Origin: an uncultured archaeon | Lineage (GTDB): Archaea > Asgardarchaeota > Lokiarchaeia > Sigyniarchaeales > SOKP01 | Direction of reading: 5' to 3' | Length of the DNA: 19,290 nt | Assembly (NCBI GenBank): GCA_964388035.1 | Contig: CAYLZE010000090.1 | Location: forward strand, 1,901-21,190 | Shown: positions 2,713-17,611 of the stretch, one piece after another | Numbering within the stretch: the stretch's first letter is position 1 | Layout: every line of letters begins with the position of its first letter | Position numbers and translations under genes: made by a program | Notes under the pieces: generated by a model | Database searches by the model: none | What the model was told of the DNA's origin: nothing | The model's input: the letters and a program-made list of their open reading frames with translations, nothing else

Positions 2713-4038
2713 ATGATAAATTTCAATAAGAATTTTCGACTCAAATCACAAGAGATATTAGGAAATTATCAGATTTCTAATTATTTAACCTATTTAAAGA
2801 AGGCTCAGTTTTTTGATGAGGAAAGAATAGAAGATAATCAAACAAAAAAACTCAAAAAAATAATACAGTATGCAGTTCAGAATATAAAATTTTATTCCGA
2901 CTTTTTCAAAGAAAACAAGCTAAAGCCTTCGGATATAAATGAGCTTGATGATTTAACTAAACTTCCCATAATAACAAAAGAAATTTATAGAAAAAACTTT
3001 CCTAATAACCTAGTGAATAGAAGTATCCCCAGAAAAAATTATGTTCTAACCCATACCTCTGGGTCTACAGCATCTCCCATTGATATTTATACTTCCCACG
3101 CATTGAGAGGACGTTATGCTGCTGAAAGTATTTTCTTTTTTGAATGGGCAGGTAAGAAATATGGAGAACCATATGTTAGAATCTGGGGGAAAGAAAGCAA
3201 GAGAATTTGGTTATTTAATACCTTCATAAAAAATGCTTTTGTTATCAATGCTAAAAAATTGAGTAATGAAACGATAAATAATTTACACCGGAATTTAATG
3301 AGAAAGAGATTTAGATTTTTAGAAGCATTTACCTCATCAGCAAATGCGCTTGCATCATTATTGAAAAAGTATAATTTGGAAATGAGCATTCCAACTACCA
3401 TAGTATCTGGTGAAACGCTCTTTGATTTTCAAAGAGAACGAATAATGGAACAATTAAATACTCAAATCTACAATCGATATGGTTGTCGGGAATGTGGAGA
3501 TATTGCACAAGAATGTTCCGAACATCAAGGTTTACACGTATTGCAAGAAAGTTTTATAATTGAAATTTTAGATGATAACAATGAACCAGTCAAAATCGGA
3601 GAAAAAGGCAAAATTATAATAACTCATTTAGATAATTATCTCTGTCCATTAATTAGATATCAAATAGATGATATTGGTGCTTTATCACCAGTAAATTGTA
3701 CTTGCGGGAGAAAATGGCAAATGCTTAAATATGTAGAAGGAAGGATTTCCGATATCATTTATTCTCCTTCAGGTAGACATATTTCCCTATTCTTTTTCAT
3801 TAAGATGTTTGAAAAATTAGTTTTTAATGCAGTGAATGAATATCAAGTATTGCAACCGAAACACTCGCCTGAATTAGTGTTAAGAATAGTACCTGGAAAT
3901 CATTATAGTCAAAAAATCGAGCATAAAATTATTAATGAAATTAAATCTCTTGATAAGACCTTTAAAATAACCATAGAGAAAGTAAAGAACATACCTTTAG
4001 AATCATCGGGGAAAAAAAAGCTCATAAAATTAATTTAA
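2713..4038 (+). CDS. Adenylate-forming enzyme, phenylacetate-CoA ligase / CapK-like family
   Basis: LPIITKE, ANL P-loop HTSGSTASP, VSGETL, NRYGCRECG, PLIRYQIDD, CTCGR, VEGRISD, C-terminal SSGKKKLI. Confidence 0.85.
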   Translation: MINFNKNFRLKSQEILGNYQISNYLTYLKKAQFFDEERIEDNQTKKLKKIIQYAVQNIKFYSDFFKENKLKPSDINELDDLTKLPIITKEIYRKNFPNNLVNRSIPRKNYVLTHTSGSTASPIDIYTSHALRGRYAAESIFFFEWAGKKYGEPYVRIWGKESKRIWLFNTFIKNAFVINAKKLSNETINNLHRNLMRKRFRFLEAFTSSANALASLLKKYNLEMSIPTTIVSGETLFDFQRERIMEQLNTQIYNRYGCRECGDIAQECSEHQGLHVLQESFIIEILDDNNEPVKIGEKGKIIITHLDNYLCPLIRYQIDDIGALSPVNCTCGRKWQMLKYVEGRISDIIYSPSGRHISLFFFIKMFEKLVFNAVNEYQVLQPKHSPELVLRIVPGNHYSQKIEHKIINEIKSLDKTFKITIEKVKNIPLESSGKKKLIKLI

Positions 4039-4119
4039 GGAAAGTATTTACATCCGTCTATTTTTTTACCATTTTAGAAAACTGTTTTTGAAAAGATTGA
4101 AGTTAGTATTTTTAATTAT

Positions 4120-5223
4120 TTAACGTAAGATTATTGAATATAATTTTTCTAATTTCAGTATAGTTTTATCAATATCATACTTTTCAAGTACTCTTTTATA
4201 AGCATTTTCAGCAATTTTATTGGCTAAATCTTTATCTTGTATTAATCTTTTTATAGCCAGAGCCATTTTTACGGGATTTTTTGCGGGAAATAATAAAGCT
4301 TCTCTTCCATCTCTAACAACTTCCACATTTTCCGGAATGTTGGTGGTAATAATCGGTTTTTTCATTGCCATGGCTTCTAATAAGCTATTTGATTGCCCTT
4401 CATATAAGGTGCTGCTTACCCAGATATCAGTAATGGCTAAAATTTGAGGGATATCCTTCCTCATTCCAAGCATTTTAACATTTTTTAAGTTTAGGTTCTT
4501 TATTGCATTATGTATTGTGTGAGTCTCATCCATAAAGTTATTTCCAGAACCAACAATAAGGAAAGTAAAATTAAATTCCTTTTGGAGATGTGCTAAAGCA
4601 TTTAATACAGTTGGATAATCTTTTTGCTTTCTAAGATGTGCAACCATCGTGATTATTAAGGAATCGGGAAACTTCATACTATTTTTAATTGCTTCCTTAT
4701 TATTTATCTGCTTGAAAATCTTAAAATCAATGCCGTTTTCAATTAATACGATTTTTCTCATATCGATGCCATAATCATTGACGAAATTCTTTAAAGTATG
4801 AGAATTTACCATGTAGACATCTACTAATCTCTGCGTCATCGTGTCAATCAAATTTAAATATTTTTTCGCTACTAATTTAATCCTTACGGAAGAAATTACT
4901 TTAGAATTTAATCCCAAGGAGGCGAATCTTCCCATTATATTGGCATGAATCATGAAGCAGTGAATAATCTGTGGTTGTTCTTGGTAGACTATTCTTCTTA
5001 ATTTAAAAAATTCAATTGGAAAGTTCTGAATTCCTTTTAAATTTAATACATATATTTTATCGACCTTATCTCTGATATCTCCTAATATATCCGTTAAATT
5101 CAAAAGACTACAAACAATTATTTCGTACATTTCCCGATTTAACTTCAGAATAATCTTCTTTAGCATGTTCTCTGCTCCTCCTGCAAAAAGTCCAGTAATC
5201 AAGTAAAATATTTTGACTGTCAT
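4120..5223 (-). CDS. Glycosyltransferase family 4 (GT-B fold)
   Basis: N-terminal GLFAGGAE, IENGID, HLRKQKD, LGMRKDIPQIL, and the EX7E motif EGQSNSLLEAMA. Confidence 0.92.
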   Translation of the reverse strand: MTVKIFYLITGLFAGGAENMLKKIILKLNREMYEIIVCSLLNLTDILGDIRDKVDKIYVLNLKGIQNFPIEFFKLRRIVYQEQPQIIHCFMIHANIMGRFASLGLNSKVISSVRIKLVAKKYLNLIDTMTQRLVDVYMVNSHTLKNFVNDYGIDMRKIVLIENGIDFKIFKQINNKEAIKNSMKFPDSLIITMVAHLRKQKDYPTVLNALAHLQKEFNFTFLIVGSGNNFMDETHTIHNAIKNLNLKNVKMLGMRKDIPQILAITDIWVSSTLYEGQSNSLLEAMAMKKPIITTNIPENVEVVRDGREALLFPAKNPVKMALAIKRLIQDKDLANKIAENAYKRVLEKYDIDKTILKLEKLYSIILR

Positions 5224-5481: not shown

Positions 5482-6327
5482 TCATTTTCTTACCATGCGT
5501 GGGTTCAAATATAAATCTAATTCTGGTTTTGGAGGTTTATAATCGGAAGTTCCCGAATCTCTCATTTCGGAAAGATGCTTTTTAATCATTTTATGAATTT
5601 CATCAATAAAATTCATTGCGCAACCAAAAAGAGTTATCATCATTATAAAAGTTTTATCATTGGCGCAATTTTCGTCAAAAATGTTGATTTCCACATCCTT
5701 CTGGACACGTTGGTGGTTTACCTCAGCAATTTGCGTTTTTCCCAAATATACTTTATAGTCATTCCCCATTCCAACCTTACCTTTTAATTCCACCACTTGA
5801 AGCTTATCCTCACTGGTTTCTGGTAATAATGGAAATGCCCATCTGGTACCAATAAACCTGCGTGCTTCCACAATGCGCGGTAGGGCCTTTAGGTTAGGGA
5901 GATGGACAAAAAAGACGGGAGCAGGACGCCGAACTTCATAACTTTGCTCTATCGAATGTAACATGGAAAGTTCTAATCCACCCATGTAATTGCCTCCCGT
6001 TCTTTCCCCAATCTTCTCTTCCATTATGGTAAATAATCGCACATTTAATCGCTTATCCTCATTTTTAGGTGTTTCCTCCCATTCCTTGCGCGCAAATGCT
6101 AACACCCATTTATCCTCGTGATCTATTTCAATTTTTCCTTCAATATCAAAATTCTTGGAGAAATAACGCGTTTGAGCTTCGTATTTGAGGTTCTGATAAA
6201 TTCCGATTTCTTCTTTATGTAATCCCGTGCGCCACAAATTAATATGAATACGTTTATAAGTTTTTCTTTTTGGTTTTGGGGGCTCTTTTTCTATAATCTC
6301 TTCTTGTTTAGACTTTTTTTTTGCCAT
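5482..6327 (-). CDS. Hypothetical protein; C-terminal half resembles Tubby-C/LURP-one/scramblase-like fold
   Basis: 281-aa ORF. The pattern LKGKVGMGNDYKVYLGKTQIAEVNHQRVQKDVEINI followed by one hydrophobic helix FIMMITLFGCAMNF recalls LURP-one-related proteins. The fold call is by eye and tentative; the gene itself is clear. Confidence 0.6.
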   Translation of the reverse strand: MAKKKSKQEEIIEKEPPKPKRKTYKRIHINLWRTGLHKEEIGIYQNLKYEAQTRYFSKNFDIEGKIEIDHEDKWVLAFARKEWEETPKNEDKRLNVRLFTIMEEKIGERTGGNYMGGLELSMLHSIEQSYEVRRPAPVFFVHLPNLKALPRIVEARRFIGTRWAFPLLPETSEDKLQVVELKGKVGMGNDYKVYLGKTQIAEVNHQRVQKDVEINIFDENCANDKTFIMMITLFGCAMNFIDEIHKMIKKHLSEMRDSGTSDYKPPKPELDLYLNPRMVRK

Positions 6328-6600: not shown

Positions 6601-7113
6601 ATGAAAGATGTGGATTACCGTTTCAAGGTTTTAATGTTAGGGGATAAGAATGTGGGTAAGACTACGCTCACGTATAGATACATGAAAGGGGACTATATTA
6701 ACAAACTTAAACGTACAATAGGTTTGGACTTATTCAGCAAAGTGATTGTTTTTTTTGGAAAAAGAATCGATCTGCAGATTTGGGATTTCGCAGGAGAGGA
6801 GAGATTTCGGGAACTCTTGCCTCACTATTGCTTGGGAGCAAGTGGAGCATTTTTACTTTATGATATTACAGATCCAAGCACCCTTGAGCATTTAAAAGAT
6901 TGGATTTCGGTTATTAAAAAAGCAATAGTAGCTATTCCCATTATTTTAATCGGCACAAAAAGGGATTTAGAAAACGCTCGGGAAATTACTTATTCAGAAG
7001 GTAAGAAAGTCATGGAGAAATTAGGGTGCATTAAATTTTTAGAGTTATCTTCGAAAACTGGTGAAAATGTTGAAAAAACGTTTGAATCCATGGTCCAATG
7101 TTTAATAGAATAA
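6601..7113 (+). CDS. Rab-like small GTPase (Ras superfamily)
   Basis: FKVLMLGDKNVGKTT (G1), RTIGLD (G2), LQIWDFAGEERF (G3), LLYDIT, IGTKRDL (G4), ELSSKTGENV (G5). Confidence 0.95.
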   Translation: MKDVDYRFKVLMLGDKNVGKTTLTYRYMKGDYINKLKRTIGLDLFSKVIVFFGKRIDLQIWDFAGEERFRELLPHYCLGASGAFLLYDITDPSTLEHLKDWISVIKKAIVAIPIILIGTKRDLENAREITYSEGKKVMEKLGCIKFLELSSKTGENVEKTFESMVQCLIE

Positions 7114-7221: not shown

Positions 7222-9456
7222 TCATTCTATTTTAACTTCACAATGATCCGAATCGCAAAATTTTTCTCCAATTGCCCTATCACTCGTGGAATCCAAATTT
7301 AAGGGCTTAATATGCGAGATCATTTGGTCGTATTCTTCCTTGGTGATTTTTTCATAAGGAGCTTGTACATACCCATGTTCGGTCAATGGAAGAAAGCTCA
7401 CGCTTTTTAATTTATCTTCATAACATTCTAATACATACTGAATTTGATCTGCTTCTTCTGTTTTAAAAGTTATTGTAATTGATACTTGGTTATCAGACCA
7501 ATAACGTTGATAAGATGCGGCATTTTCCGCCTGCTCCCAAATAGAAACATCATCCTTGGAACGAACAAAATATTTTTCGTGAATCGGAAATTCTACCACT
7601 AAAGAATTATCAGAATACTGATCTTGCTCAATCTTATAACCGGTTTCTTTTAAAGGGGGTATGAGATCGGAATTTTGAGAGATTCTGATTCTCCGAATAT
7701 AATATTCTGAATGCGGATAATGGATACCGGGAGTCACTCCTGGGAGAAGACTTACCGTTCCACTGGGTTTTACCGTGGTTATTTTGATGGATTTAGGCAC
7801 GCAAAGCCAATTGGAATATTCTTTATCCAACTCCCTTAAATATTTATAAGCTTTATCGCACCATTCTAACATGGTCCTCCTACCATGTCTCACCATTGCC
7901 TCAATAATGCCCGTTTGCGAAATGCCCATTCGTCTATTCTTTAACATCACTGCATTGGTCTCTTTCCAATGCGTGTTAACTAAAGTAACGCTTTTGGCAT
8001 ATAAATAGGCGTACTTCAACGTCTCTTGGAATTCCTCATAGGTATCATTACGGGAAGGAAAGGTTTCTGCAAGGCAACAAAGCTCAAAGGATTCAAGAGA
8101 TTGCTCTCCGCAGGGATTTATTCCCGCAACCTTATTATCTGCATGATCAGGAGCGTCGCCCATCCGGGAATAATCTCTGGCATTATTTAACCAGAAGATT
8201 CCTGGTTCTCCATTTACAGCGATTTGCTTGGCTATAAAGGAATAATCCATGCCTTTCATTGCGAATACGCTGTTGTTGCTTGCCCATCTATGAGAATACA
8301 ATTTATCTTTATCCTGCTTGCATAAAAGGAAACCGATATCAGTAGGATCTCCTAACGCAATTTCGGCACTTCGGCGAACATTACCGGCCACAACGCATTT
8401 TCCAATAAGGTTCATTATATCTAAGATATCAACCGAGGTGATTGGTTTTCCGATTCTTTGATCCAATATGTCCTTTATATTTTCAAGCATTTTGCGTAAT
8501 GGTTTGGGTCCGGACGCTATACCACCAAAACCGCGGATGGGATCTCCAGCGGGTCTTATTTTGGAAAAATCGAAAGTGGGAAGCTGCTTACCCAAAAAAT
8601 ATGCATCTAACAATAATTTTAACGCTTCCACCCATCCCTCTCTGCTATCGGGTATTTCAAAAAGGAAAATCCCCTCCTTGGGTACCTTGATATTGATTTT
8701 TCCTGCACCCTTCGTGTCAAATCCCACGCCTACCCCCAACATTAATGCATCCATGACGAATTCAAACGCTTTGCTATATTTTAAATCAATATCCTCTGTT
8801 GAAGCAAATCCACAATTATTTAATGCCATGGAGCCATGCCGTGCAATGAACTCGGTACCCATCATCCACAATCCCCTGCCGGGAGGGCACATTTTAAAGT
8901 CCCAAATTTTTTGGTACATTTTCTGAGCAGATTTTTGTGCCTTCATTTCGTTCCATGGCAAGCTTAACTTCATGCAATGCTCTTTTTGAATGGAATAGCA
9001 ACCTTCTACTACTCGTTTTATGGTTTCCCAGAATTCTTCCTTACGATCTTCTTTCTCAATGATTCTGGCATAGGTTCTTTTATAGCTTATATATCCCAAC
9101 GGACCCCAATCGGGTTGTTTATGATTAAATCGATTGAGAAATTCCTCGTCTAATGTAAAGGAAATATTCTCTAAATTAATGGCTCTAGCAAACAAATTTC
9201 TGTACTTATTTAATCCCCTCTGGGTTAACTCCAAGCATACCAATTCTCTAATGTGATTAGTAGAAATTTCTTTTACTCCGAATCCTATTATTTTTCTTAT
9301 AACCTCTTCAGCGACTTCATTTGCTATGTTCATATCTAAACCCGTTTCCTTATTAAGTATCTTAGCTATACTGGATTCATCAAACGGTTCTTTTTCCCCT
9401 TTTGAATTAATCACGTATTTTGGATATAAATCAGATAATGAAAAATTGCGTGTCAT
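7222..9456 (-). CDS. nrdJ: Class II (adenosylcobalamin-dependent) ribonucleoside-triphosphate reductase, monomeric RTPR-like type, with N-terminal ATP-cone
   Basis: YKRTYAR, PPGRGLW, LNNCGF, IPDSREGW, VVAGNVRRSAEI, thiyl-radical motif NPCGE, ELCCLAE, TTVKPSGTVS, C-terminal FCDSDHC. N-terminal VINSKGEKEPFD...IRELVCLEL is an ATP-cone. Confidence 0.95.
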   Translation of the reverse strand: MTRNFSLSDLYPKYVINSKGEKEPFDESSIAKILNKETGLDMNIANEVAEEVIRKIIGFGVKEISTNHIRELVCLELTQRGLNKYRNLFARAINLENISFTLDEEFLNRFNHKQPDWGPLGYISYKRTYARIIEKEDRKEEFWETIKRVVEGCYSIQKEHCMKLSLPWNEMKAQKSAQKMYQKIWDFKMCPPGRGLWMMGTEFIARHGSMALNNCGFASTEDIDLKYSKAFEFVMDALMLGVGVGFDTKGAGKINIKVPKEGIFLFEIPDSREGWVEALKLLLDAYFLGKQLPTFDFSKIRPAGDPIRGFGGIASGPKPLRKMLENIKDILDQRIGKPITSVDILDIMNLIGKCVVAGNVRRSAEIALGDPTDIGFLLCKQDKDKLYSHRWASNNSVFAMKGMDYSFIAKQIAVNGEPGIFWLNNARDYSRMGDAPDHADNKVAGINPCGEQSLESFELCCLAETFPSRNDTYEEFQETLKYAYLYAKSVTLVNTHWKETNAVMLKNRRMGISQTGIIEAMVRHGRRTMLEWCDKAYKYLRELDKEYSNWLCVPKSIKITTVKPSGTVSLLPGVTPGIHYPHSEYYIRRIRISQNSDLIPPLKETGYKIEQDQYSDNSLVVEFPIHEKYFVRSKDDVSIWEQAENAASYQRYWSDNQVSITITFKTEEADQIQYVLECYEDKLKSVSFLPLTEHGYVQAPYEKITKEEYDQMISHIKPLNLDSTSDRAIGEKFCDSDHCEVKIE

Positions 9457-9689
9457 TAATATACCTCTATTTCTTAATTCTTATAACCTTACTTCTGTTA
9501 TATTAGTAATAATCTCAAAAATTATCCTATACTCTATTATTCAATTATTTTTAAATTAAATTTTATCTCCACTTTATTATTTTCACATTAACATACACTA
9601 ATATCGGTCTAATTCTAGTTAAAACCCTATATATTTAAATGAAAAATTATGAAACTTTAATACTTACATTTTAATTTTCATATAAATAG

Positions 9690-9863
9690 ATTTTTAAAAT
9701 TCAGGAATATTTTTTTTCACCCGTGAAGGTCTTCAAAGAAAGAATAGAGATGATAGATGATTTTGGTAATCTTTTTGCATCCCATTTCGAAGAATAAATG
9801 GACTAATTTTATGGGAAAGTCGCCAAATTTGACCTTTTTATTTCTGAAATAGAAAATTTATAA
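9690..9863 (+). pseudogene. Possible decayed gene fragment (C-terminal part of a longin-like small domain)
   Basis: One frame reads IFKIQEYFFSPVKVFKERIEMIDDFGNLFASHFEE*MD*FYGKVAKFDLFISEIENL*, with internal TAA at 9795 and 9804. Family resemblance is by eye only. Confidence 0.3.
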
Positions 9864-10495
9864 AAGGATAATGTAAGAAACCAAAGTAGAAAAAGCATCA
9901 TTCAAATTGTGGAGAGACACGTTTTTATTTGTCTATATTCGTTCAGCTTAATCCGAATCCTATACTTCTGATAAGATCATGATATCATTGTTCCTTGTTT
10001 TTTCAGATTACGAATTTCCATTCATTTTCGTACATTCTCTTCGATAATAAATTAAATTATTGAAATTATCGAATAAAATCTTTCTTTTTTTATAATATAT
10101 AAAAAAATTGAATTCAAATATGGAACTCTCTAAACCTTTTTTAGAGAATTCATTTCTTAAATGAAACGGTTATTATTGGAAAAAGAATGAATTTTGAGCA
10201 TTTGCAAATATTTTTCTTATATTACTTATTTTTGTATACATTTTATTTTTATTTGACTGAAAGAAGCAAGCTTACTTCCTTAATCGAAATAGTAGATATT
10301 CTCAAAATTCAATAGAGAAGGTTTCATTTTCTTCCAATAAAAATTAACTTTTTTTTCAAATATGAAAGTTTTCAATCGAAAGAATATTATTTTATTCAAC
10401 TTTCAGATTATTAAGGTTCTCAATACTTTTATATTAGAGAGAAAATAAGTTCTCTAAAATTAGTGAAGAGTAGATGTATAATATAAGGGTTATCC

Positions 10496-11419
10496 ATGGC
10501 GTTTAAACCAGAACAAGCTCTAGGCGAACAAGGGCAAGATTTCATGGAAGAGGGTGTTAGAGAGGAAGTTCCCGTTCATTTTGTTTGGTTCATCCTTTCA
10601 TTCCTATTAATATTCATGGGGTCATTATTACTTCCCAGTATTATGTTTATGGTATACGTATTGTATTTTTTTGTTCCCTATTTTTTGGATGTTACTAATT
10701 TTATCATGGTATTTAACAATAATCTGAGTCTACTTGCCCTTCTTACCTTTCCTTTGATGTTAATTGCATGCTACTTGGTACGCCTGTATTTCATCGCTAT
10801 TTTTACACGCATTTTTTGGAGATACACGGAAAGAAAAATGCCGACGAAAGATGGGATTATTCCTCGCAATTTTGCCAGTAAAACCTTGGAATATTATCAT
10901 AAACGATCATTTTTAATAAAATATCCTAAAAATACCTTCATGAAAGGAGTGTTTCCATGGTTAATTAATTGGCTTTATAAATATGTAGGGACCAATAAAG
11001 TAGGAAAGGGTGCAACTATCGAAGAACAATTTGGTGCAGATAAATTCGTGGATATTGGAAAGAATAGTTATATTGGAGTGGGCTCAGGAATTAGCTCCCA
11101 TGTCGTTGAAGGCATTTTTGGTAATATTCCTTATTTTGAAATAAAAATTGGAGATAATGCAACTTGTGCGGCCCGAACGACTCTTGGGCCGGGATGCAAT
11201 ATTAAAAATGATTCTTACATGTTTCCTATGGCTTGCGGAACTAAATTCAATGAAACTAAAGGGGATGGACATTTTTATTTTGGAATGCCCTTTCGAAAAA
11301 TATTTAAGAAAAAAATCATGGAATATTTGAAAGTATCAGAAGAGGATTTAGAAAGGGCAGAAAATCTAAGAATGAAAAGAGAGAATCAAACTTCTAATCA
11401 ATTAAGAGAGAGAGAATAA
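10496..11419 (+). CDS. Cassette 1 gene A: membrane-anchored left-handed beta-helix (hexapeptide-repeat) acyltransferase-like protein, resembling one repeat of the Pls/NRPS terminal domain
   Basis: Two TM helices, PTKDGIIPR linker, hexapeptide repeats (KVGKGATI, DIGKNSYIG, KIGDNATC, TLGPGCNIKNDS), SSHVVEG, terminal FYFGMP. Paralog of 13890..14765. Confidence 0.85.
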   Translation: MAFKPEQALGEQGQDFMEEGVREEVPVHFVWFILSFLLIFMGSLLLPSIMFMVYVLYFFVPYFLDVTNFIMVFNNNLSLLALLTFPLMLIACYLVRLYFIAIFTRIFWRYTERKMPTKDGIIPRNFASKTLEYYHKRSFLIKYPKNTFMKGVFPWLINWLYKYVGTNKVGKGATIEEQFGADKFVDIGKNSYIGVGSGISSHVVEGIFGNIPYFEIKIGDNATCAARTTLGPGCNIKNDSYMFPMACGTKFNETKGDGHFYFGMPFRKIFKKKIMEYLKVSEEDLERAENLRMKRENQTSNQLRERE

Positions 11420-11424
11420 TTAAA

Positions 11425-12369
11425 TTGACTCAAGAACACGAAGAGATAGATTCTATGGAGGATTCGAAAGAAGAAGAAGAGGAAAATGAAATAGAAGAGG
11501 ATGTTTTTGATGAAGAAGGGGATATCATCTTAGATTTTACTACCAGTAGCGCCATCAGTCGTATCAATATTAAATTTCTTGTAGTCTACATTCCCTTTTT
11601 CTGGATTTGTGGAATTGGGGAAGCAATTTTTTGGTATGAATGGACTAAAAATTTACCTCCCATACAAACCAATCCAACTGCGTGGATAGGCACCATCCTT
11701 CTTTTACCATTTGCTTTTCTGTGCATGTATTTTATTTTTATTCTGGAAGCGGCTTTCTTTGGAAAACTATTCTTAACCTTAATTAATCTAATTCACAAAC
11801 CAAAAGAAGGTATCTTCAGAGCGGAACTAGGAGATACGGATTTTGAATTTTGGTGCTTACGCACGGAATTAAAAAAATTCGTCTTTTGGTTAATCCGAAA
11901 TTGTCCCATTCCCTGGATTGATGTTTTAGCATTTCGCTGGTTCGGAATAAGAATCAATTTCTCGAGCCATTTGAATGATGCTTGGTGCGATGGAGAGTTC
12001 ATGAAATTTGGGAGAAGAGTAATGGCGGGACAAGCGAGTGTATTAATGTGTTCAATGGTAGCTGGTAATTATCTTATTATTAAAGAAGTAGTCTTTAATG
12101 ACTATATTGTAATTGGAGGAATTTCAAGCATTGCTCCTGGAACAATTTTTGGTAGTGACACGGTATTAGGGGCAGTTTCGATAACAACCTACGACCAATT
12201 ATTGGAAGCGGGATGGATATATTCCGGGATTCCAGCAAGGAAATATAAGCCAAATAAATTATATGAAATGAGACGAGATGTCATTGCTAAAATCGATGTG
12301 GATAGCGAACAAAGAATTGATGTGAAGCACGAGGTTAACGTTGATGAAGATAAAAAAGATTTGGCTTAA
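11425..12369 (+). CDS. Cassette 1 gene B: membrane-anchored left-handed beta-helix protein, Pls/NRPS terminal-domain-like repeat
   Basis: TTG start 5 nt after the gene A stop, acidic N-terminus, two TM helices, KPKEGIFR..DFEFWCLR, AFRWFGIRI, KFGRRVMAGQ, VIGGISSIAPGTIFGSDTVLG, WIYSGIPA. Paralog of 14773..15675. Confidence 0.85.
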   Translation: MTQEHEEIDSMEDSKEEEEENEIEEDVFDEEGDIILDFTTSSAISRINIKFLVVYIPFFWICGIGEAIFWYEWTKNLPPIQTNPTAWIGTILLLPFAFLCMYFIFILEAAFFGKLFLTLINLIHKPKEGIFRAELGDTDFEFWCLRTELKKFVFWLIRNCPIPWIDVLAFRWFGIRINFSSHLNDAWCDGEFMKFGRRVMAGQASVLMCSMVAGNYLIIKEVVFNDYIVIGGISSIAPGTIFGSDTVLGAVSITTYDQLLEAGWIYSGIPARKYKPNKLYEMRRDVIAKIDVDSEQRIDVKHEVNVDEDKKDLA

Positions 12370-12377
12370 ATAAAAAT

Positions 12378-12383
12378 AGGTGA
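12378..12383 (+). promoter_or_regulatory. Shine-Dalgarno site of cassette 1 gene C
   Basis: AGGTGA 6 nt upstream of ATG at 12390. Confidence 0.7.
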
Positions 12384-12389
12384 AAAAAA

Positions 12390-13307
12390 ATGTCAGTTCC
12401 TTCTAGCTTACGAGTCGGCCCATTTGTTTCCAATGTCTTGGTGAAAAAACGATATTTATTTTTTCATTTCCTGCTAATCTGGGCCAGTATCATTCCGATA
12501 ATGTTGGAATTTTGGATATATTGGCAGTTTTTCTGGAATTACGCACGTCCCGTACATTTCTATATTTATTTACCCTTGTTATTCTTCTTAATGTACCTCA
12601 CACTTGCGGGAAGTGCACTTATCTTTGCAAAGTTATTATTAATGATTGTAAATGCGGTTTACCCCGCAAAAGAAGGAGTATTTCTTAGGGATGCATCGGA
12701 TAAAGATTATCGATTTTGGAGCATGCGTAATGTAATTAAGAAATGGCCCGTTTGGATTTGTCATAAATTCCCCTTTCCATTTTTAGATAATATAGCATTT
12801 AAAATGTTTGGCGTCAAGACAAAGTTCTCAAATTCTCTTTTTGAGGGATGGGTAGATACAGAATTCATAGAATTTGGACATAACGTGGTCGTGGGACAAG
12901 GTGCATTAGTCATGAGTGCTCTTATAATTGGCAATTTTCTTATTATTCGGAAAACTATTATTGAAGATAATGTAAGGATTGGAGCTCATTCCATTATTCT
13001 TCCGGGCACGCATGTTGGAAAGAATTGCGTGTTAAATACGTGGTCTACGACTATTGTTGGTCAAGAACTGGAGGATGGATGGATATATAATGGTGGACCT
13101 GCAAAAAAATTTAGAAAAAATCACTTTTTTCAACCCGGATTAGAAGGAAGAATCAAAGGAGTATCGAAAAATACGAAAGAATTGAGGGAAAGATATGATA
13201 GTCAATATGAAAAACGCCACGACGAGAAAATATCTATCATAAAACGCATAAAACGCAGAAAAGAGATAAAGGAAGAAGAATCTAAGATTTGGGAAAAGGT
13301 GGATTAA
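12390..13307 (+). CDS. Cassette 1 gene C: membrane-anchored left-handed beta-helix protein, Pls/NRPS terminal-domain-like repeat
   Basis: Two TM helices, PAKEGVFLR..DYRFWSMR, FKMFGVK, EFGHNVVVGQGA, IEDNVRIGAHSIILPGTHVGKNCVL, WIYNGGPA, charged helical tail. Confidence 0.88.
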   Translation: MSVPSSLRVGPFVSNVLVKKRYLFFHFLLIWASIIPIMLEFWIYWQFFWNYARPVHFYIYLPLLFFLMYLTLAGSALIFAKLLLMIVNAVYPAKEGVFLRDASDKDYRFWSMRNVIKKWPVWICHKFPFPFLDNIAFKMFGVKTKFSNSLFEGWVDTEFIEFGHNVVVGQGALVMSALIIGNFLIIRKTIIEDNVRIGAHSIILPGTHVGKNCVLNTWSTTIVGQELEDGWIYNGGPAKKFRKNHFFQPGLEGRIKGVSKNTKELRERYDSQYEKRHDEKISIIKRIKRRKEIKEEESKIWEKVD

Positions 13308-13315
13308 AGAACTTA

Positions 13316-13720
13316 TTATGAACTTTTCTTGTTTAAAAGTTCCTCCCTAACAAATTTCTTCAATTTCATGCACGTTTTTTTGAATTCTTGCTCATGCGTA
13401 TAAAATAGAGATGTTCTTGGACAAGATCCATCCAAAATGCATTGCTTCTTATTGATATCATAAATCATGGGATAGAACTTGCACCCTTTTGGACGAATAT
13501 CATAAATTCTACAACTTTTATCGTTTTTATTAAAAAAGTAACAATTATTTTCCATGTTCGTCATTTGATAAAGCCCATCTTCATTCTTAAAGAAGAAATC
13601 TTTTATAGTTGAATTATTAAAATAATTTAATTGAATCCGCTTGATATCCCTTGCAGACAGAAGCATTTCCGTTTGAATGCAACATAGCCCACAATCTTCG
13701 CATTTTGGAAAATTAGACAT
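13316..13720 (-). CDS. YkgJ family cysteine-cluster protein (CxxCxxCC, putative Fe-S or Zn binding)
   Basis: CEDCGLCC, NNCYFF, CRIYDIRPKGCKFYP, plus two further Cys (QCILDGSCP). Confidence 0.9.
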   Translation of the reverse strand: MSNFPKCEDCGLCCIQTEMLLSARDIKRIQLNYFNNSTIKDFFFKNEDGLYQMTNMENNCYFFNKNDKSCRIYDIRPKGCKFYPMIYDINKKQCILDGSCPRTSLFYTHEQEFKKTCMKLKKFVREELLNKKSS

Positions 13721-13889
13721 TTTTGAGAACTCTATTAATATTCCATCTATGATTAAGTTAGCTATGTTTTAGTTATGATGAGAATTTTGAAGAGAATTTT
13801 GATGCATTAATACTAACGATTTATGAATTTTTAGGATAATATTTATAACGTAAAAAGTACAAGAATTCATATAAATATTTGTATTAAAC

Positions 13890-14765
13890 ATGGAAGCAGC
13901 ACTGAATCCTTCAAATAATGATAGTAACCAGCTTAAGTCCGCTGAAGTGAAACTCCAATTTCATTGGTATTTATTGGGGTTTTTTATTATATATTTGGGT
14001 TCTTTTATCGTTCCAAGTATTGTTTTCATGAGCTATTTAGTATTATTTTATTTTCCTTATTTTTTAGAGCAGAAAGTATTGATGAATATATTCACAAATA
14101 TCAATTCATTAATAGCGGCAATTCTCTTACCATTAATCTTTCTTGGATGTTATCTTATTCATGTTTTGATGATGGGACTATTTACACGTTCGTTATGGAG
14201 GCTTACCGAAAAAATTTCTCCTACAAAAGAGGGTATCATTCCTAGAAATATAGAAAGCAAGACTCTGAATTTTTATCATATCCGCTCTTTTTTGCTAAAA
14301 TATCCCAAAAACTCTATTGTAAAGGGGCCTTTTCCGTGGTTGATTAATTGGTTTTATAATTTCGTGGGAACAAACAAAATTGGAAAAGCTACTACTATTG
14401 AAGAACAATTTGGAGCCGATAGATTTATTGAAGTGGGAGAGAATAGTTATATTGGAGTAAATTCGGGATTTAGTTCCCATTCTGTTGAAGGTGTTTTTGG
14501 AAATATCGCTTATTATAAGATCATCATAGGGGATAACGTGACAACAGCAGGATTGAATTGCTTAGCACCTGGTGTTGAGATAAAGGATAATTCTTACTTG
14601 CTTCCAATGGCGGGAGCAACTAAATTCAACAAACTTAAAGGAGACAATTTTTATTTTGGCATTCCCCTAAGAAAAATCTTTAAAAAAAAAACAATGGAAT
14701 ATCTAAATTTATCTGAAGAAGAAGTGGAGAAAGTTTATTTGAATGAATCTACAAATCTAGAATGA
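13890..14765 (+). CDS. Cassette 2 gene A: membrane-anchored left-handed beta-helix acyltransferase-like protein
   Basis: Colinear with 10496..11419 (TKEGIIPRN, RSFLLKYPKN, FPWLINW, VGTNKIG, IEEQFGAD, SSHSVEGVFGNI, FYFGIP). Confidence 0.85.
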   Translation: MEAALNPSNNDSNQLKSAEVKLQFHWYLLGFFIIYLGSFIVPSIVFMSYLVLFYFPYFLEQKVLMNIFTNINSLIAAILLPLIFLGCYLIHVLMMGLFTRSLWRLTEKISPTKEGIIPRNIESKTLNFYHIRSFLLKYPKNSIVKGPFPWLINWFYNFVGTNKIGKATTIEEQFGADRFIEVGENSYIGVNSGFSSHSVEGVFGNIAYYKIIIGDNVTTAGLNCLAPGVEIKDNSYLLPMAGATKFNKLKGDNFYFGIPLRKIFKKKTMEYLNLSEEEVEKVYLNESTNLE

Positions 14766-14772
14766 GGAAAAC

Positions 14773-15675
14773 ATGATGCAACATATTGATGATGAAATTG
14801 ATGCGATTCATGAACAAAATTCTAATCTAGATAATGATGAGCAGATTTCAGACTATATACTTGATTTCAATACTAGTAGCGCGATTTCTAATATAAGTTT
14901 AAAATTCTTGGTGCTATACATACCTATATTTTGGCTTAGCGGGTATTTAGTGATTACAATAGTAATTATGGCTTATAATGACCTTAACTTAATATTATTT
15001 ACTCTATTACTTCCTTTGATGTTAATTGGCATGTTTTTTCTATTTATTTTGAATGCAGTTTTTTTCACTAAATTATTTCTTACTTTTATCAATCTCATCC
15101 ATAGACCAAAAACCGGAATATTTAAAGCCATAAAGGGGGATAAGGATTTTGAATTTTGGAGATTAAGAATTGAATTGAAAAAGATTGGAGTATGGTTATT
15201 GAATAATTGTCCCTTACCTTTTACTGATGTATGGGCATTTAAATGGTTTGGAGCAAAGATGAATATTCTTAGCCATCTTTACGATGCTTGGGTGGATGTT
15301 GAATTCGTTGAAATGGCACGGAGAGTGACGGTCGGCCAAGGGGCAGTGGTGATGAGTTCCATGGTGGTAGGAAAGTATTTAATCATAAAAGAAATTACCT
15401 TTGATGATTATTCTGTCATAGGGGGGGTTTCTAATATTGCGCCAGGTACTTTTGTGGGAAATGATACGGTAATTGGAGCATTTTCTAGCAGTTCTTTCGG
15501 CCAAATCTTGGAACCAGGCTGGATTTATTTCGGAATCCCCGCCATAAAGTTAAAGAGAAACAAATATGCGGAAGAGAGAAGCGATATTATCATCGAGCGA
15601 GATGTAGATAATCAAAAGAAGTACGAAGTAAAGAGTGAAATTAATATTGACGAAGATAAAAAGGAGTTATTATAA
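14773..15675 (+). CDS. Cassette 2 gene B: membrane-anchored left-handed beta-helix protein
   Basis: Colinear with 11425..12369 (ILDFNTSSAIS, DFEFWRLR, SHLYDAWVD, IAPGT, WIYFGIPA, DEDKKEL). A GAGG RBS at 14764-14767 overlaps the upstream TGA stop. Confidence 0.85.
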   Translation: MMQHIDDEIDAIHEQNSNLDNDEQISDYILDFNTSSAISNISLKFLVLYIPIFWLSGYLVITIVIMAYNDLNLILFTLLLPLMLIGMFFLFILNAVFFTKLFLTFINLIHRPKTGIFKAIKGDKDFEFWRLRIELKKIGVWLLNNCPLPFTDVWAFKWFGAKMNILSHLYDAWVDVEFVEMARRVTVGQGAVVMSSMVVGKYLIIKEITFDDYSVIGGVSNIAPGTFVGNDTVIGAFSSSSFGQILEPGWIYFGIPAIKLKRNKYAEERSDIIIERDVDNQKKYEVKSEINIDEDKKELL

Positions 15676-15682
15676 TTATCTA

Positions 15683-15688
15683 AGGTGA
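15683..15688 (+). promoter_or_regulatory. Shine-Dalgarno site of cassette 2 gene C
   Basis: AGGTGA 6 nt upstream of ATA at 15695; same motif and spacing as in the paralog. Confidence 0.6.
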
Positions 15689-15694
15689 TATGAA

Positions 15695-16633
15695 ATATCT
15701 GTTCCTTCCTCTCTCAAAGCAGGACCATTTACTACTCAACTATTAATTAAGAAACGATATCTTTTATTTCATGTTTTCCTCATCTTCAGTACTATTTTCA
15801 TTGTTCAATTTGAATTCTGGCTATATTGGAATTTATGCTTCCATGAAAACTTCATCATTTTTGTTTTCTTTCTTCCTTTTTTATTAATTTTGATGTATTT
15901 CAGTAGTATATTCATTTCTCTCCTTATTGCGAAAATCTTGTTATTAATTACCATTTCTATTTGCCCACTAAAAGAGGGCGTGTTCCTTAGGGACCCTCCC
16001 AGTAAGGATTATCGCTATTGGTGTATGAGGAGTGTGATCAAGAAATGGCCTGTTTGGCTTAGTCACAAATTTCCCTTTCCATTTTTAGATAATCTTTGTT
16101 TTAAATTATTCGGTGTCAAAACAAAATTATCTAACTCCCTTTTTGAAGGATGGGTGGATACGGAGTTCATTGAATTTGGTGATAACGTGGTAGTAGGACA
16201 AGGTGCTATTATTCAATCCGCAATGATAGTGGGCAATTTGTTAATTATAAAGAAAACTAGAATTGATGATAACGTGCACATTGGAGCTCATTCATTCGTA
16301 ATGCCTGGCACGCATATTGGTGCTAATGCAATATTAGCTGCTAGTTCCGCTACGACTGTTGGACAAGAACTGGAAGAAAATATGATTTATGTTGGAGTCC
16401 CTTCAAAAAAATATAAAGAAAACAAATTTTTTGAAGATGGCCTTGAAAATATTTTAGATAAGACAATAAAAAATGCAGAAGGCATCAGGAAAAAGTATGA
16501 ACAAATGTACGTTAAACGACATGATGAGCATCTTCCTTTATTAGAACGATATCACCATTATCAAGAAATTAGAGAAGAAGAGAAATCCCGATTAGAAAAA
16601 GCCTTGCTAAAAAATGTGAAAAAAGAAGAATAA
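15695..16633 (+). CDS. Cassette 2 gene C: membrane-anchored left-handed beta-helix protein; start extended upstream to a non-canonical ATA
   Basis: The ORF track starts at 15890, but the same frame is open back to TGA at 15686-15688 and reads (ATA)SVPSSLKAGPFTTQLLIKKRYLLFHVFL..., matching MSVPSSLRVGPFVSNVLVKKRYLFFHFLL of 12390..13307. Confidence 0.8.
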   Translation: MSVPSSLKAGPFTTQLLIKKRYLLFHVFLIFSTIFIVQFEFWLYWNLCFHENFIIFVFFLPFLLILMYFSSIFISLLIAKILLLITISICPLKEGVFLRDPPSKDYRYWCMRSVIKKWPVWLSHKFPFPFLDNLCFKLFGVKTKLSNSLFEGWVDTEFIEFGDNVVVGQGAIIQSAMIVGNLLIIKKTRIDDNVHIGAHSFVMPGTHIGANAILAASSATTVGQELEENMIYVGVPSKKYKENKFFEDGLENILDKTIKNAEGIRKKYEQMYVKRHDEHLPLLERYHHYQEIREEEKSRLEKALLKNVKKEE

Positions 16634-16774
16634 TCTCATCAAATTTTATCTGTAGCCTATTTTTTAAATGGTATTCTTCATAAATCTCATGAGACATGCT
16701 TTCAATTAGAAATTAATATTTTATAAGCAATAAAATAAAAAAATGTGAATTACTGAAAATTTTAGGTGGTCCAA

Positions 16775-17611
16775 ATGGAACCTATTATAACCTTTTCTAT
16801 CATTATATATTCCATAATTACCTTATATATTTACATATTTATAGCAGCCATCATAGGGATTTCGAAAAAAAATAATGCAATCATGGATGTTTTTTATGGT
16901 CCCGGGTACTTTGTGCTTATTGCGAGTAGCTGGGCATTCCATATTTATTTCACCAAGTCATTCACTCTACGTCAGATCATTACTACCATTCTGATCTTAA
17001 TTTGGTCAATTAGACTTGCCACTTATGTTCATATCAGAAATCGTGGGAAGCCAGAGGATAAAAGGTATGCGAACATGAGACAAAAATGGAAAAATCAAGG
17101 GAAAAGCGTGGTTTTAATGAGTATAATGAAGATTTATGTATTTCAAGGATTGGTGATCATTATCGTGGGATTTGCTGGAGTTTGGATTAATGTAATTGAC
17201 GATCCTCTCCTTTCTCTATTTCAAGATCCTCTTGGTCTTACTTTATGGATCGGAATTGTAATTTGGGCACTAGGTTTTTACTTTGAGACTGTGGGGGATT
17301 TTCAATTATATTCTTTTCTACACGATCCCAATCGTACGAAACGTATTATGGATGAAGGTTTATGGAAATATACACAACACCCTAATTACTTTGGAGAAGT
17401 CACTCAATGGTGGGGGATCTATATTATCGCAATAGGAGTTCCGTATGGGTTTATCATGATTTTTAGTTCCCTCTATATTACTTGGCAAATCATTAGTGTA
17501 TCTGGAGTGCGATTATTAAGTAAAAATTTTCAAGGTAATGAAGAATATCAAGCCTATCAAAAACGAACGAGTCAATTCATTCCTTGGTTTCCTAAAAAAG
17601 AGAAAAAATAA
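16775..17611 (+). CDS. DUF1295 family membrane protein (steroid 5-alpha-reductase/ICMT-like superfamily)
   Basis: IMDVFYG, WSIRL, EDKRY, VFQG, ETVGDFQL, GLWKYTQHPNYFGE..WWG, YQKRTSQFIPW. ATG at 16775 is preferred over GTG at 16766 because AGGTGG (16764-16769) then serves as RBS. Confidence 0.9.
   Translation: MEPIITFSIIIYSIITLYIYIFIAAIIGISKKNNAIMDVFYGPGYFVLIASSWAFHIYFTKSFTLRQIITTILILIWSIRLATYVHIRNRGKPEDKRYANMRQKWKNQGKSVVLMSIMKIYVFQGLVIIIVGFAGVWINVIDDPLLSLFQDPLGLTLWIGIVIWALGFYFETVGDFQLYSFLHDPNRTKRIMDEGLWKYTQHPNYFGEVTQWWGIYIIAIGVPYGFIMIFSSLYITWQIISVSGVRLLSKNFQGNEEYQAYQKRTSQFIPWFPKKEKK

Follow-up and report, generated by a model that had tools for sequence, protein, structure and literature searches.

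What do two adjacent sets of membrane-anchored beta-helix genes build in a Lokiarchaeial genome, and do the three kinds of protein that they encode work as one enzyme? The question arises from a 19,290-nucleotide stretch of DNA (the window, G000:C90:1901-21190) taken from a metagenome-assembled genome (MAG, G000) of 5.47 Mb, 96.7% complete with 7.3% contamination. Two tandem A-B-C gene triads lie on its + strand, at 10496-13307 and 13890-16633, and encode six proteins, every one of which has two hydrophobic helices (a membrane hairpin) followed by a hexapeptide-repeat region of the left-handed beta-helix (LbH) type. Our analysis shows a real, conserved and undescribed family, which is probably a carrier-less, split and heterotrimeric variant of the membrane LbH module of Pls-type poly-amino-acid synthetases, with a single active site. 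The six genes are the following.

10496-11419, + strand: A1, catalytic-type subunit, 307 aa; carries the invariant His202
11425-12369, + strand: B1, non-catalytic-type subunit, 314 aa from TTG 11425; transmembrane (TM) hairpin plus LbH
12390-13307, + strand: C1, non-catalytic-type subunit, 305 aa; the best conserved of the three
13890-14765, + strand: A2, second catalytic-type subunit, 291 aa; histidine within an S-S-H-x-V-E-G loop
14773-15675, + strand: B2, second B-type subunit, 300 aa
15695-16633, + strand: C2, second C-type subunit, 312 codons counted from ATA 15695

A first-pass annotation of this DNA had described two runs of three co-oriented, tightly linked genes, and the open reading frames bear it out, with gaps of 5 and 20 nt in the first copy and 7 and 19 nt in the second (the database gene call for B1 starts instead at ATG 11455, giving 304 aa). 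It had also held that A, B and C are distant from one another while each is kept between the copies. Pairwise BLASTP agrees: identity is 55% for A1/A2, 52% for B1/B2 and 56% for C1/C2 (E 1e-109 to 1e-124), against 17-39% between kinds, with B and C at 36-39% and A at 17-28% to either. The motifs listed in that annotation correspond to invariant columns of the six-way alignment, namely K-x-G after the second membrane helix (TM2), the arginine of an aromatic-x-x-R motif and a terminal Y-x-G-x-P. The Pfam Hexapep model recognizes C1 (33.5 bits) and C2 (32.2 bits) above its cut-off of 27, while the A and B proteins fall under it. Subunit C is strongly conserved, its homologues being 60-81% identical with a mean column identity of 73%.

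The case for a joint assembly begins with gene fusions. In relatives, A and B occur as a single chain of ~610-630 aa, C and A as a chain of ~535-565 aa, and all three as a C-A-B triple (P0122, 797 aa, Promethearchaeota). Gene order is equally strict: over 14 loci of relatives and 79 further loci surveyed in Asgard genomes it is always A, B, C and inverted in none, with the limit that all compared loci come from one family and their common synteny may be inherited. Among the ~70 sets in the 79 further loci, 38 have A fused to B followed by a separate C, 22 have three separate genes and 8 have extra A genes; lone A-B fusions also occur, adjoining complete sets. In a second type of locus, fused C-A is followed by a separate B. 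The three arrangements (A-B-C, C-A followed by B, and C-A-B) are cyclic permutations of one ring order.

Structure prediction points the same way. The complex model of A1+B1+C1 reached an ipSAE of 0.88, compared with 0.28 for the best of three controls; on the calibration set, 58 of 80 solved complexes attained the mark set for this score, as did 2 of 110 mismatched pairs. The runs agree in at least 90% of contacts, the partners have pLDDT of at least 85, and the confident contacts involve membrane helices and beta-helices alike. Taken with the fusions and the synteny, this model upholds the earlier proposal that A, B and C form a membrane heterotrimer with six TM helices, for which a 1:1:1 stoichiometry is inferred. 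A competing explanation is that the three genes encode separate homotrimeric membrane acyltransferases that are merely neighbours, since hexapeptide acyltransferases are normally homotrimeric and the single-gene homologues of other Asgard families presumably act in this way. We consider it very improbable: the A-B, C-A and C-A-B fusions join different units in one chain, the genes strictly co-occur and keep their order, and the heterotrimer model passes its controls. Moreover, rings of three B or three C subunits would be inactive by the canonical mechanism for want of its histidine (see below), yet C is the best conserved of the three.

The fold of A1 bears on what such a ring might catalyse. 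The AlphaFold2 model of A1, built from a diverse alignment, has a mean pLDDT of 92.6 and shows membrane helices at about residues 29-64 and 76-114, a strand at 120-122, helices at 129-149 and 154-164 and an LbH at 168-265 (a model of C1 from 60 close homologues was poor, pLDDT 52.9, and was not used). Residues 113-270 superpose on whole chains (residues 1-182) of maltose/galactoside O-acetyltransferases (MAT/GAT) with VIA Z of 12.8-13.3 and a root-mean-square deviation of ~2.9 Å over ~150 residues, and Foldseek matches were also retrieved. Since entire chains are covered, the apparent linker of A1 corresponds to the N-terminal helical region of this enzyme type, and the fold shared with E. coli Maa and LacA, S. 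aureus SACOL2570 and V. cholerae VCA0836 extends over the soluble part of A1 with its N-terminal helices. These enzymes differ from the Asgard proteins in being soluble homotrimers with three identical sites, whereas the Asgard assembly has one hairpin per subunit, three different predicted subunits and one histidine. In the A1 sequence six Arg/Lys residues follow TM2 and none lies in the loop between TM1 and TM2, a distribution that would place the beta-helices in the cytoplasm.

In E. coli LacA, His115 is the established general base. A profile alignment of A-type sequences places A1 His202 on this residue (structure 1kqa), and His202 is invariant in 60 of 60 A-type sequences, while the same column holds Ser, Ala or Thr in B and C, in sets of both the A-B-C and the C-A-B type. 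As only A keeps the LacA-type catalytic histidine, the ring probably has one canonical active site, in A. The C-type subunits have a separate conserved histidine, His200, within an I-G-A-H-S coil (134 of 141 C-type sequences); it was rejected as the catalytic residue because the LacA alignment puts it at His143 and not at His115.

Rings of this fold do not always transfer acyl groups, and an alternative is a non-acyltransferase role, with the triad serving as a gamma-carbonic-anhydrase-like, structural or transport-associated LbH ring. In plant and protist complex I, gamma-carbonic anhydrases (gamma-CA; CA1/CA2/CAL) form a membrane-attached heterotrimer of LbH paralogues with degenerate sites, which offers a precedent for such a ring. 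Gamma-CA and complex-I CA/CAL chains do appear among the sequence and fold matches, including an NCBIfam gamma-CA match for C2 (E 1e-6); these are weak and generic to the LbH, much weaker than the acetyltransferase matches. The gamma-CA module also performs zinc hydration chemistry and is attached to complex I, whereas the Asgard triad is anchored by its own hairpins. With MAT/GAT acetyltransferases as the best whole-chain fold matches, and with the acetyltransferase general base kept by A in an alignable loop, we regard this alternative as quite unlikely, though a little less so than that of three homotrimers.

Among acetyltransferase families, the best NCBIfam match of A1 and A2 is NF058585 (E 8e-7 and 4e-8), at 29-33 bits against a cut-off of 300. 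Its members, heptaprenylglyceryl phosphate O-acetyltransferases of the Bacillus YvoF type, are LbH enzymes of the MAT type whose substrate is an isoprenoid glycerol lipid of archaeal type. They are soluble and homomeric, unlike the Asgard triad, and the resemblance may be one that MAT enzymes show in general.

For B and C, on the other hand, the top NCBIfam match is TIGR02353 (E 1e-5 to 5e-12; B1 3e-5, C1 3.5e-11), the model of the C-terminal membrane module (TM1-6 with C1-C2-C3) of the single-module Pls/PosA synthetases, which make epsilon-poly-L-lysine and delta-poly-L-ornithine. The six proteins score 17-45 bits, below the curated cut-off of 423.1 bits, and the fused triple P0122 scores 54 bits. 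The match of B2 runs from residue 47 to 267 on model positions 11-220 and so takes in hairpin and LbH. When 1.84 billion representative proteins were searched with a profile built from the six sequences, 106 matched with E <1e-30 and 706 with E <1e-10, their taxonomic assignments being mainly to Promethearchaeota, Elusimicrobiota and Bdellovibrionota. The profile also matches, in three stretches and at E 2.7e-23, a 1713-aa nonribosomal peptide synthetase (NRPS), P0268, which has adenylation (A) and PCP carrier domains and scores 471 bits with TIGR02353, above the cut-off.

The likeness extends to architecture. One paper states that Pls-related synthetases are the sole known holders of this design (PMC8117764). 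[quoted passage not shown] The A1 model fits that description unit for unit, both being predictions. Pls/PosA and the Asgard triad thus have in common three units, each of two TM helices, a strand, two helices and an LbH, together with a six-helix bundle, and the one Pls-type sequence examined, P0268, resembles the triad further in that one unit keeps the catalytic-column histidine. Given the profile match to P0268 and this fit, we conclude that the Asgard family is homologous to the C-terminal module of Pls/PosA and shares its unit architecture. The best structural matches are ordinary soluble acetyltransferases, an outcome that the first-pass annotation had taken as adverse to a Pls link; it does not count against the link, because in the PDB we found the Pls adenylation domain (7wew) only and no Pls membrane module to be matched.

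The same annotation had gone further and equated A, B and C with the tandem C1, C2 and C3 domains of Pls. Homology and unit architecture stand; the one-to-one equivalence does not. In a tree of individual units, a branch (SH-aLRT 83-91) sets the Asgard units apart as a group. When the His-bearing units of the Asgard, bacterial and Pls-type proteins are constrained to be monophyletic, the likelihood drops by 59.5 log units and the approximately unbiased (AU) test rejects the constraint (p-AU 0.00025), in an analysis with one Pls-type sequence and long branches, whose constrained group was named after a first tree. This test and the separate Asgard clade rule out the candidate of a split Pls gene. 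Because a common origin of the His-bearing units is rejected, the three-way split arose in parallel. The position of the His-bearing unit also varies: it is first in A-B-C, in the middle in C-A-B and last in P0268. The loss of catalytic units down to a single one seems likewise to have been a parallel development.

Detachment of the module from its A and thiolation (T) domains, another point of the earlier description, is plain from the locus: the subunits are separate genes and the window holds no A or T domain. The Asgard units occur as separate genes or as two- or three-unit fusions without A or T, whereas Pls is a single chain in which the module follows those domains. Bacteria too have carrier-less forms, since five proteins (P0187, P0195, P0261, P0262 and P0237) consist of the three-unit module alone, in P0237 with an N-terminal short-chain dehydrogenase (SDR) in place of the A and T domains. 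All are annotated as hypothetical; apart from the SDR fusion, the profile search found them as carrier-less three-unit proteins of 650-683 aa, two of which, P0261 and P0262, come from Elusimicrobiota. Like the Asgard triad, these proteins combine three units of two TM helices and an LbH, mostly with one His-bearing unit (the middle one in four of the five, while P0261 keeps the histidine in all three). They differ in being single chains of 650-960 aa that stand closer to Pls (157-184 bits with TIGR02353), and their units cluster away from those of Asgard archaea.

How widespread is the Asgard family? Each of A, B and C has 450-680 database homologues, nearly all from MAGs of Promethearchaeota (Lokiarchaeia) and annotated as 'hypothetical' or 'DapH/DapD/GlmU-related'. 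In a sample of 120 genomes from the phylum, the window's family gave strong matches in all 15 of its genomes and a sister family in both of its 2, with 2-17 matched units per genome; elsewhere in the sample there were weak single matches only. Within Lokiarchaeia it has expanded to 2-5 sets in each genome. A literature search for stand-alone or archaeal forms of the Pls-type module found no description, in keeping with the earlier remark that no archaeal system of this kind had been described. The genome analysed here has 12 units in four sets (4 A-type and 8 B/C-type), those outside the window being as follows.

Contig C8, 61977-64404: further set, a C-A fusion plus B
Contig C32, 44439-46042: further set, a B and C pair at the contig end; its relatives are fused in P0154
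Contig C13, 53582-54424: A-type partner of the contig C32 pair, unlinked

The two cassettes of the window and the two sets elsewhere are paralogues and probably differ in substrate. The unlinked A gene on contig C13 adjoins a gene resembling the alpha subunit of ADP-forming acyl-CoA synthetase, a homologue of which lies 1.1 kb from a set in another genome (G040, locus L031). Comparison among families suggests how triads came about: the window's family has triads and the sister family (f2) has pairs of A and a second unit, X, while other Asgard families (loci L038-L045; genomes G038, G047 and G006) have dispersed single genes with the same hairpin and LbH, all keeping the catalytic-column histidine. 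These dispersed genes likely represent the homotrimeric ancestral state of the triad.

We next consider where an acyl group might come from. The ABC system was present in 15 of 15 family genomes searched. Besides the analysed genome, 21 genomes of the family, many of which are 98% complete or better, were searched for PP-binding (carrier) domains, and one of them yielded a match. The genomes of this family thus mostly lack carrier domains, in contrast to Pls/PosA, whose chain includes a T domain. The rarity of carriers in genomes bearing the system argues that it is independent of a carrier protein, and the conserved neighbours at the 79 related loci include no adenylating enzyme and no carrier. 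Because acyl-CoA is the usual donor of the LbH fold and carrier proteins are rare, we take an acyl-CoA, by analogy, to be the most likely donor, in preference to an amino acid bound to a carrier.

The analysed genome itself has a single carrier domain, in an 875-aa protein of A-T-TE layout (TE, thioesterase) on contig C1 at 83423-86050, - strand (locus L046, 7424-10051). Beside it is the sole Sfp-type phosphopantetheinyl transferase (PPTase; contig C1, 87352-88131, + strand; L046, 11353-12132), and MFS transporters flank the two genes. The adenylation domain is of the fatty-acyl-CoA-ligase type (FadD7-like, E 4e-119), and the gene is unlinked to the ABC sets. As such domains are so rare in the family, the A-T-TE and PPTase genes may form a small cluster of NRPS-like or lipid type that was gained by horizontal transfer.

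These observations bear on the idea that the triad is a Pls-like polymerase and exporter, which would take monomers such as amino acids as carrier-, CoA- or tRNA-linked donors supplied in trans, join them into an amide or ester polymer and pass it out through the helix bundle. Homology to a bona fide synthetase, the unit architecture of the PosA model and the single His-bearing unit in P0268 and most bacterial triples all speak for it, as do the A-T-TE protein and PPTase of this genome and an AlaX-like tRNA-editing gene near 26 of the 79 loci. The distribution is hard to reconcile with it, carriers being so rare where ABC is universal; the A-T-TE protein is unlinked, has a fatty-acyl-type A domain and brings its own thioesterase. 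Nor does any conserved neighbour make or activate a monomer, and to our knowledge no LbH enzyme uses aminoacyl-tRNA. Furthermore, a triad that originated independently of C1-C3 cannot be assumed to share their function. We judge such a polymerase unlikely, if less so than either a non-acyltransferase ring or separate homotrimers. The form put forward in the first-pass annotation, in which a carrier or a stand-alone A domain supplies the donor, finds no support: the carrier search returned one unlinked A-T-TE gene here and a match in one of the 21 other family genomes, and the conserved neighbours include neither carriers nor adenylating enzymes.

The reading that we favour, with a probability of about 0.6, is that of one ABC heterotrimer with a single catalytic centre in A, an acyl-CoA donor and an acceptor bound at the membrane-proximal end. 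Mechanistically, one copy each of A, B and C would form a ring-shaped heterotrimer in which the three two-helix hairpins make up a six-helix membrane bundle and the three LbH domains sit together on the cytoplasmic side of that bundle, in the manner of trimeric hexapeptide acyltransferases. A would supply the general-base histidine as sole catalytic centre, and B and C would act as scaffold and binding subunits. Acyl-CoA would insert its pantetheine arm at the cytoplasmic end of the beta-helices, and a hydroxyl or amino group of the acceptor, located at the membrane-proximal end, would receive the acyl moiety. In the A1 model, the N-terminal end of the MAT/GAT-like domain, which in that enzyme type binds the acceptor, abuts the membrane bundle, and this placement suggests an acceptor embedded in the membrane or crossing it. 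Candidate acceptors would be membrane lipids, lipid-linked glycans or molecules that traverse the helix bundle.

Several points weigh against this single-site, acyl-CoA-dependent heterotrimer. LbH homotrimer structures have already been solved, and likeness to them may contribute part of the score of the complex model; LbH paralogues may also score well in any combination, the modelled combination being ABC only. A second active site is possible, given the histidines kept by C-type subunits (His200) and by the set on contig C32, a basal set that has the catalytic-column histidine in both its B- and C-type units. The rarity of carrier domains was inferred partly from incomplete MAGs, and the conserved neighbours at the 79 loci form no coherent pathway that would hint at donor or acceptor. 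The one relative with a characterised function, Pls, uses its module to polymerise amino acids. Finally, the six-helix bundle has no explained purpose if the acceptor is a plain lipid head group.

A bolder proposal is that the triad is a new archaeal membrane machine, in which transfer of an acyl group from a thioester in the cytoplasm is coupled to a substrate that the helix bundle itself holds or lets through. We rate it as speculative and about as unlikely as the Pls-like polymerase. Were it true, the triad might for instance be a lipid-esterifying or lipid-amidating enzyme of Lokiarchaeia, with a bearing on the unusual lipid biochemistry proposed for Asgard archaea, or alternatively a carrier-independent polymerase-exporter, and its paralogous sets would yield a family of products.

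The favoured heterotrimer matters on several counts. A threefold membrane hairpin and beta-helix had hitherto been known from a few poly-amino-acid synthetases of bacteria and fungi only, as the part that polymerises; here the same design appears as free-standing subunits, in a large, conserved and expanded family of the archaeal group closest to eukaryotes, where triads would have evolved in parallel from single-gene, presumably homotrimeric ancestors. The triad would amount to a Pls-type module taken apart by nature into subunits that can be expressed one by one, of which one is catalytic and two are scaffolds, and it would give a clear example of the repeated evolution of a homotrimer into a pseudo-trimer with a single active site. 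As an abundant membrane enzyme of Lokiarchaeia, its product (lipid, glycan or polymer) could be of importance for the biology of the Asgard envelope.

One gene of the second triad lacks a standard start. Position 15695 of C2 is ATA, with no ATG, GTG or TTG, where the paralogue C1 has ATG. A Shine-Dalgarno-like GGTGA box stands 6 nt before the ATA, and the same box precedes the ATG of C1. The frame is open from 15689, and its first canonical start, TTG 15890, would delete the first membrane helix; an out-of-frame ATG at 15690 is probably a coincidence. The start stretch (window 15684-15697) is identical in contigs from three metagenome runs of three studies, including one strain that is ~1% diverged, and among the strain variants listed for C2, 9 are synonymous and 3 nonsynonymous, two of the synonymous ones lying upstream of TTG 15890. 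The identity across three studies and the synonymous upstream variants favour AUA initiation over a pseudogene, and C2 is probably functional, with AUA as its predicted start.

Two further genes accompany the triads in the window.

13316-13720, - strand: CxxCxxCC (PF03692) putative Zn/Fe-binding protein, 134 aa (Pfam E 5.7e-13)
16766-17611, + strand: DUF1295 (steroid-reductase / ICMT-like) membrane protein (Pfam E 1.3e-55)

The CxxCxxCC gene is convergent with C1 across an 8-nt gap. In 58 of the 79 loci its orthologue lies no more than 6 kb from the C gene, which makes it the commonest neighbour of the system. An orthologue of DUF1295 was found near the cassette in 5 of the first 18 loci compared. 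Besides these two and the AlaX-like gene, the conserved neighbours comprise a Zn-dependent dehydrogenase, a leucine-rich-repeat (LRR) protein, DUF6512, a C-N hydrolase and a class II ribonucleotide reductase (RNR).

Upstream of A1, an AT-rich gap of ~1 kb (window 9457-10495, GC ~0.28), in which no open reading frame exceeds 77 aa, separates it from a divergent RNR gene and presumably holds the promoters of both. A scan of the whole window with Rfam, this gap included, gave zero matches, and a promoter and terminator scan of the window gave background level only, with bacterial-type consensus sequences applied to an archaeal host. The RNR is a class II (B12-dependent) enzyme with an ATP-cone (7222-9456, - strand) and adjoins a Ras-family small GTPase (6601-7113, + strand; Pfam Ras E 7e-46), a typical 'eukaryotic signature' protein of Asgard archaea. 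Further upstream, the region 2713-5223 encodes a PaaK/F390-synthetase-like acyl-CoA ligase (441 aa; NCBIfam E 6e-37, under the cut-offs) and a GT4-type glycosyltransferase. Relatives with syntenic loci have the orthologues of 1385-2158 and 5482-6327 side by side, and the genes of 2713-5223 are not found between them, so that these look like an insertion specific to this genome.

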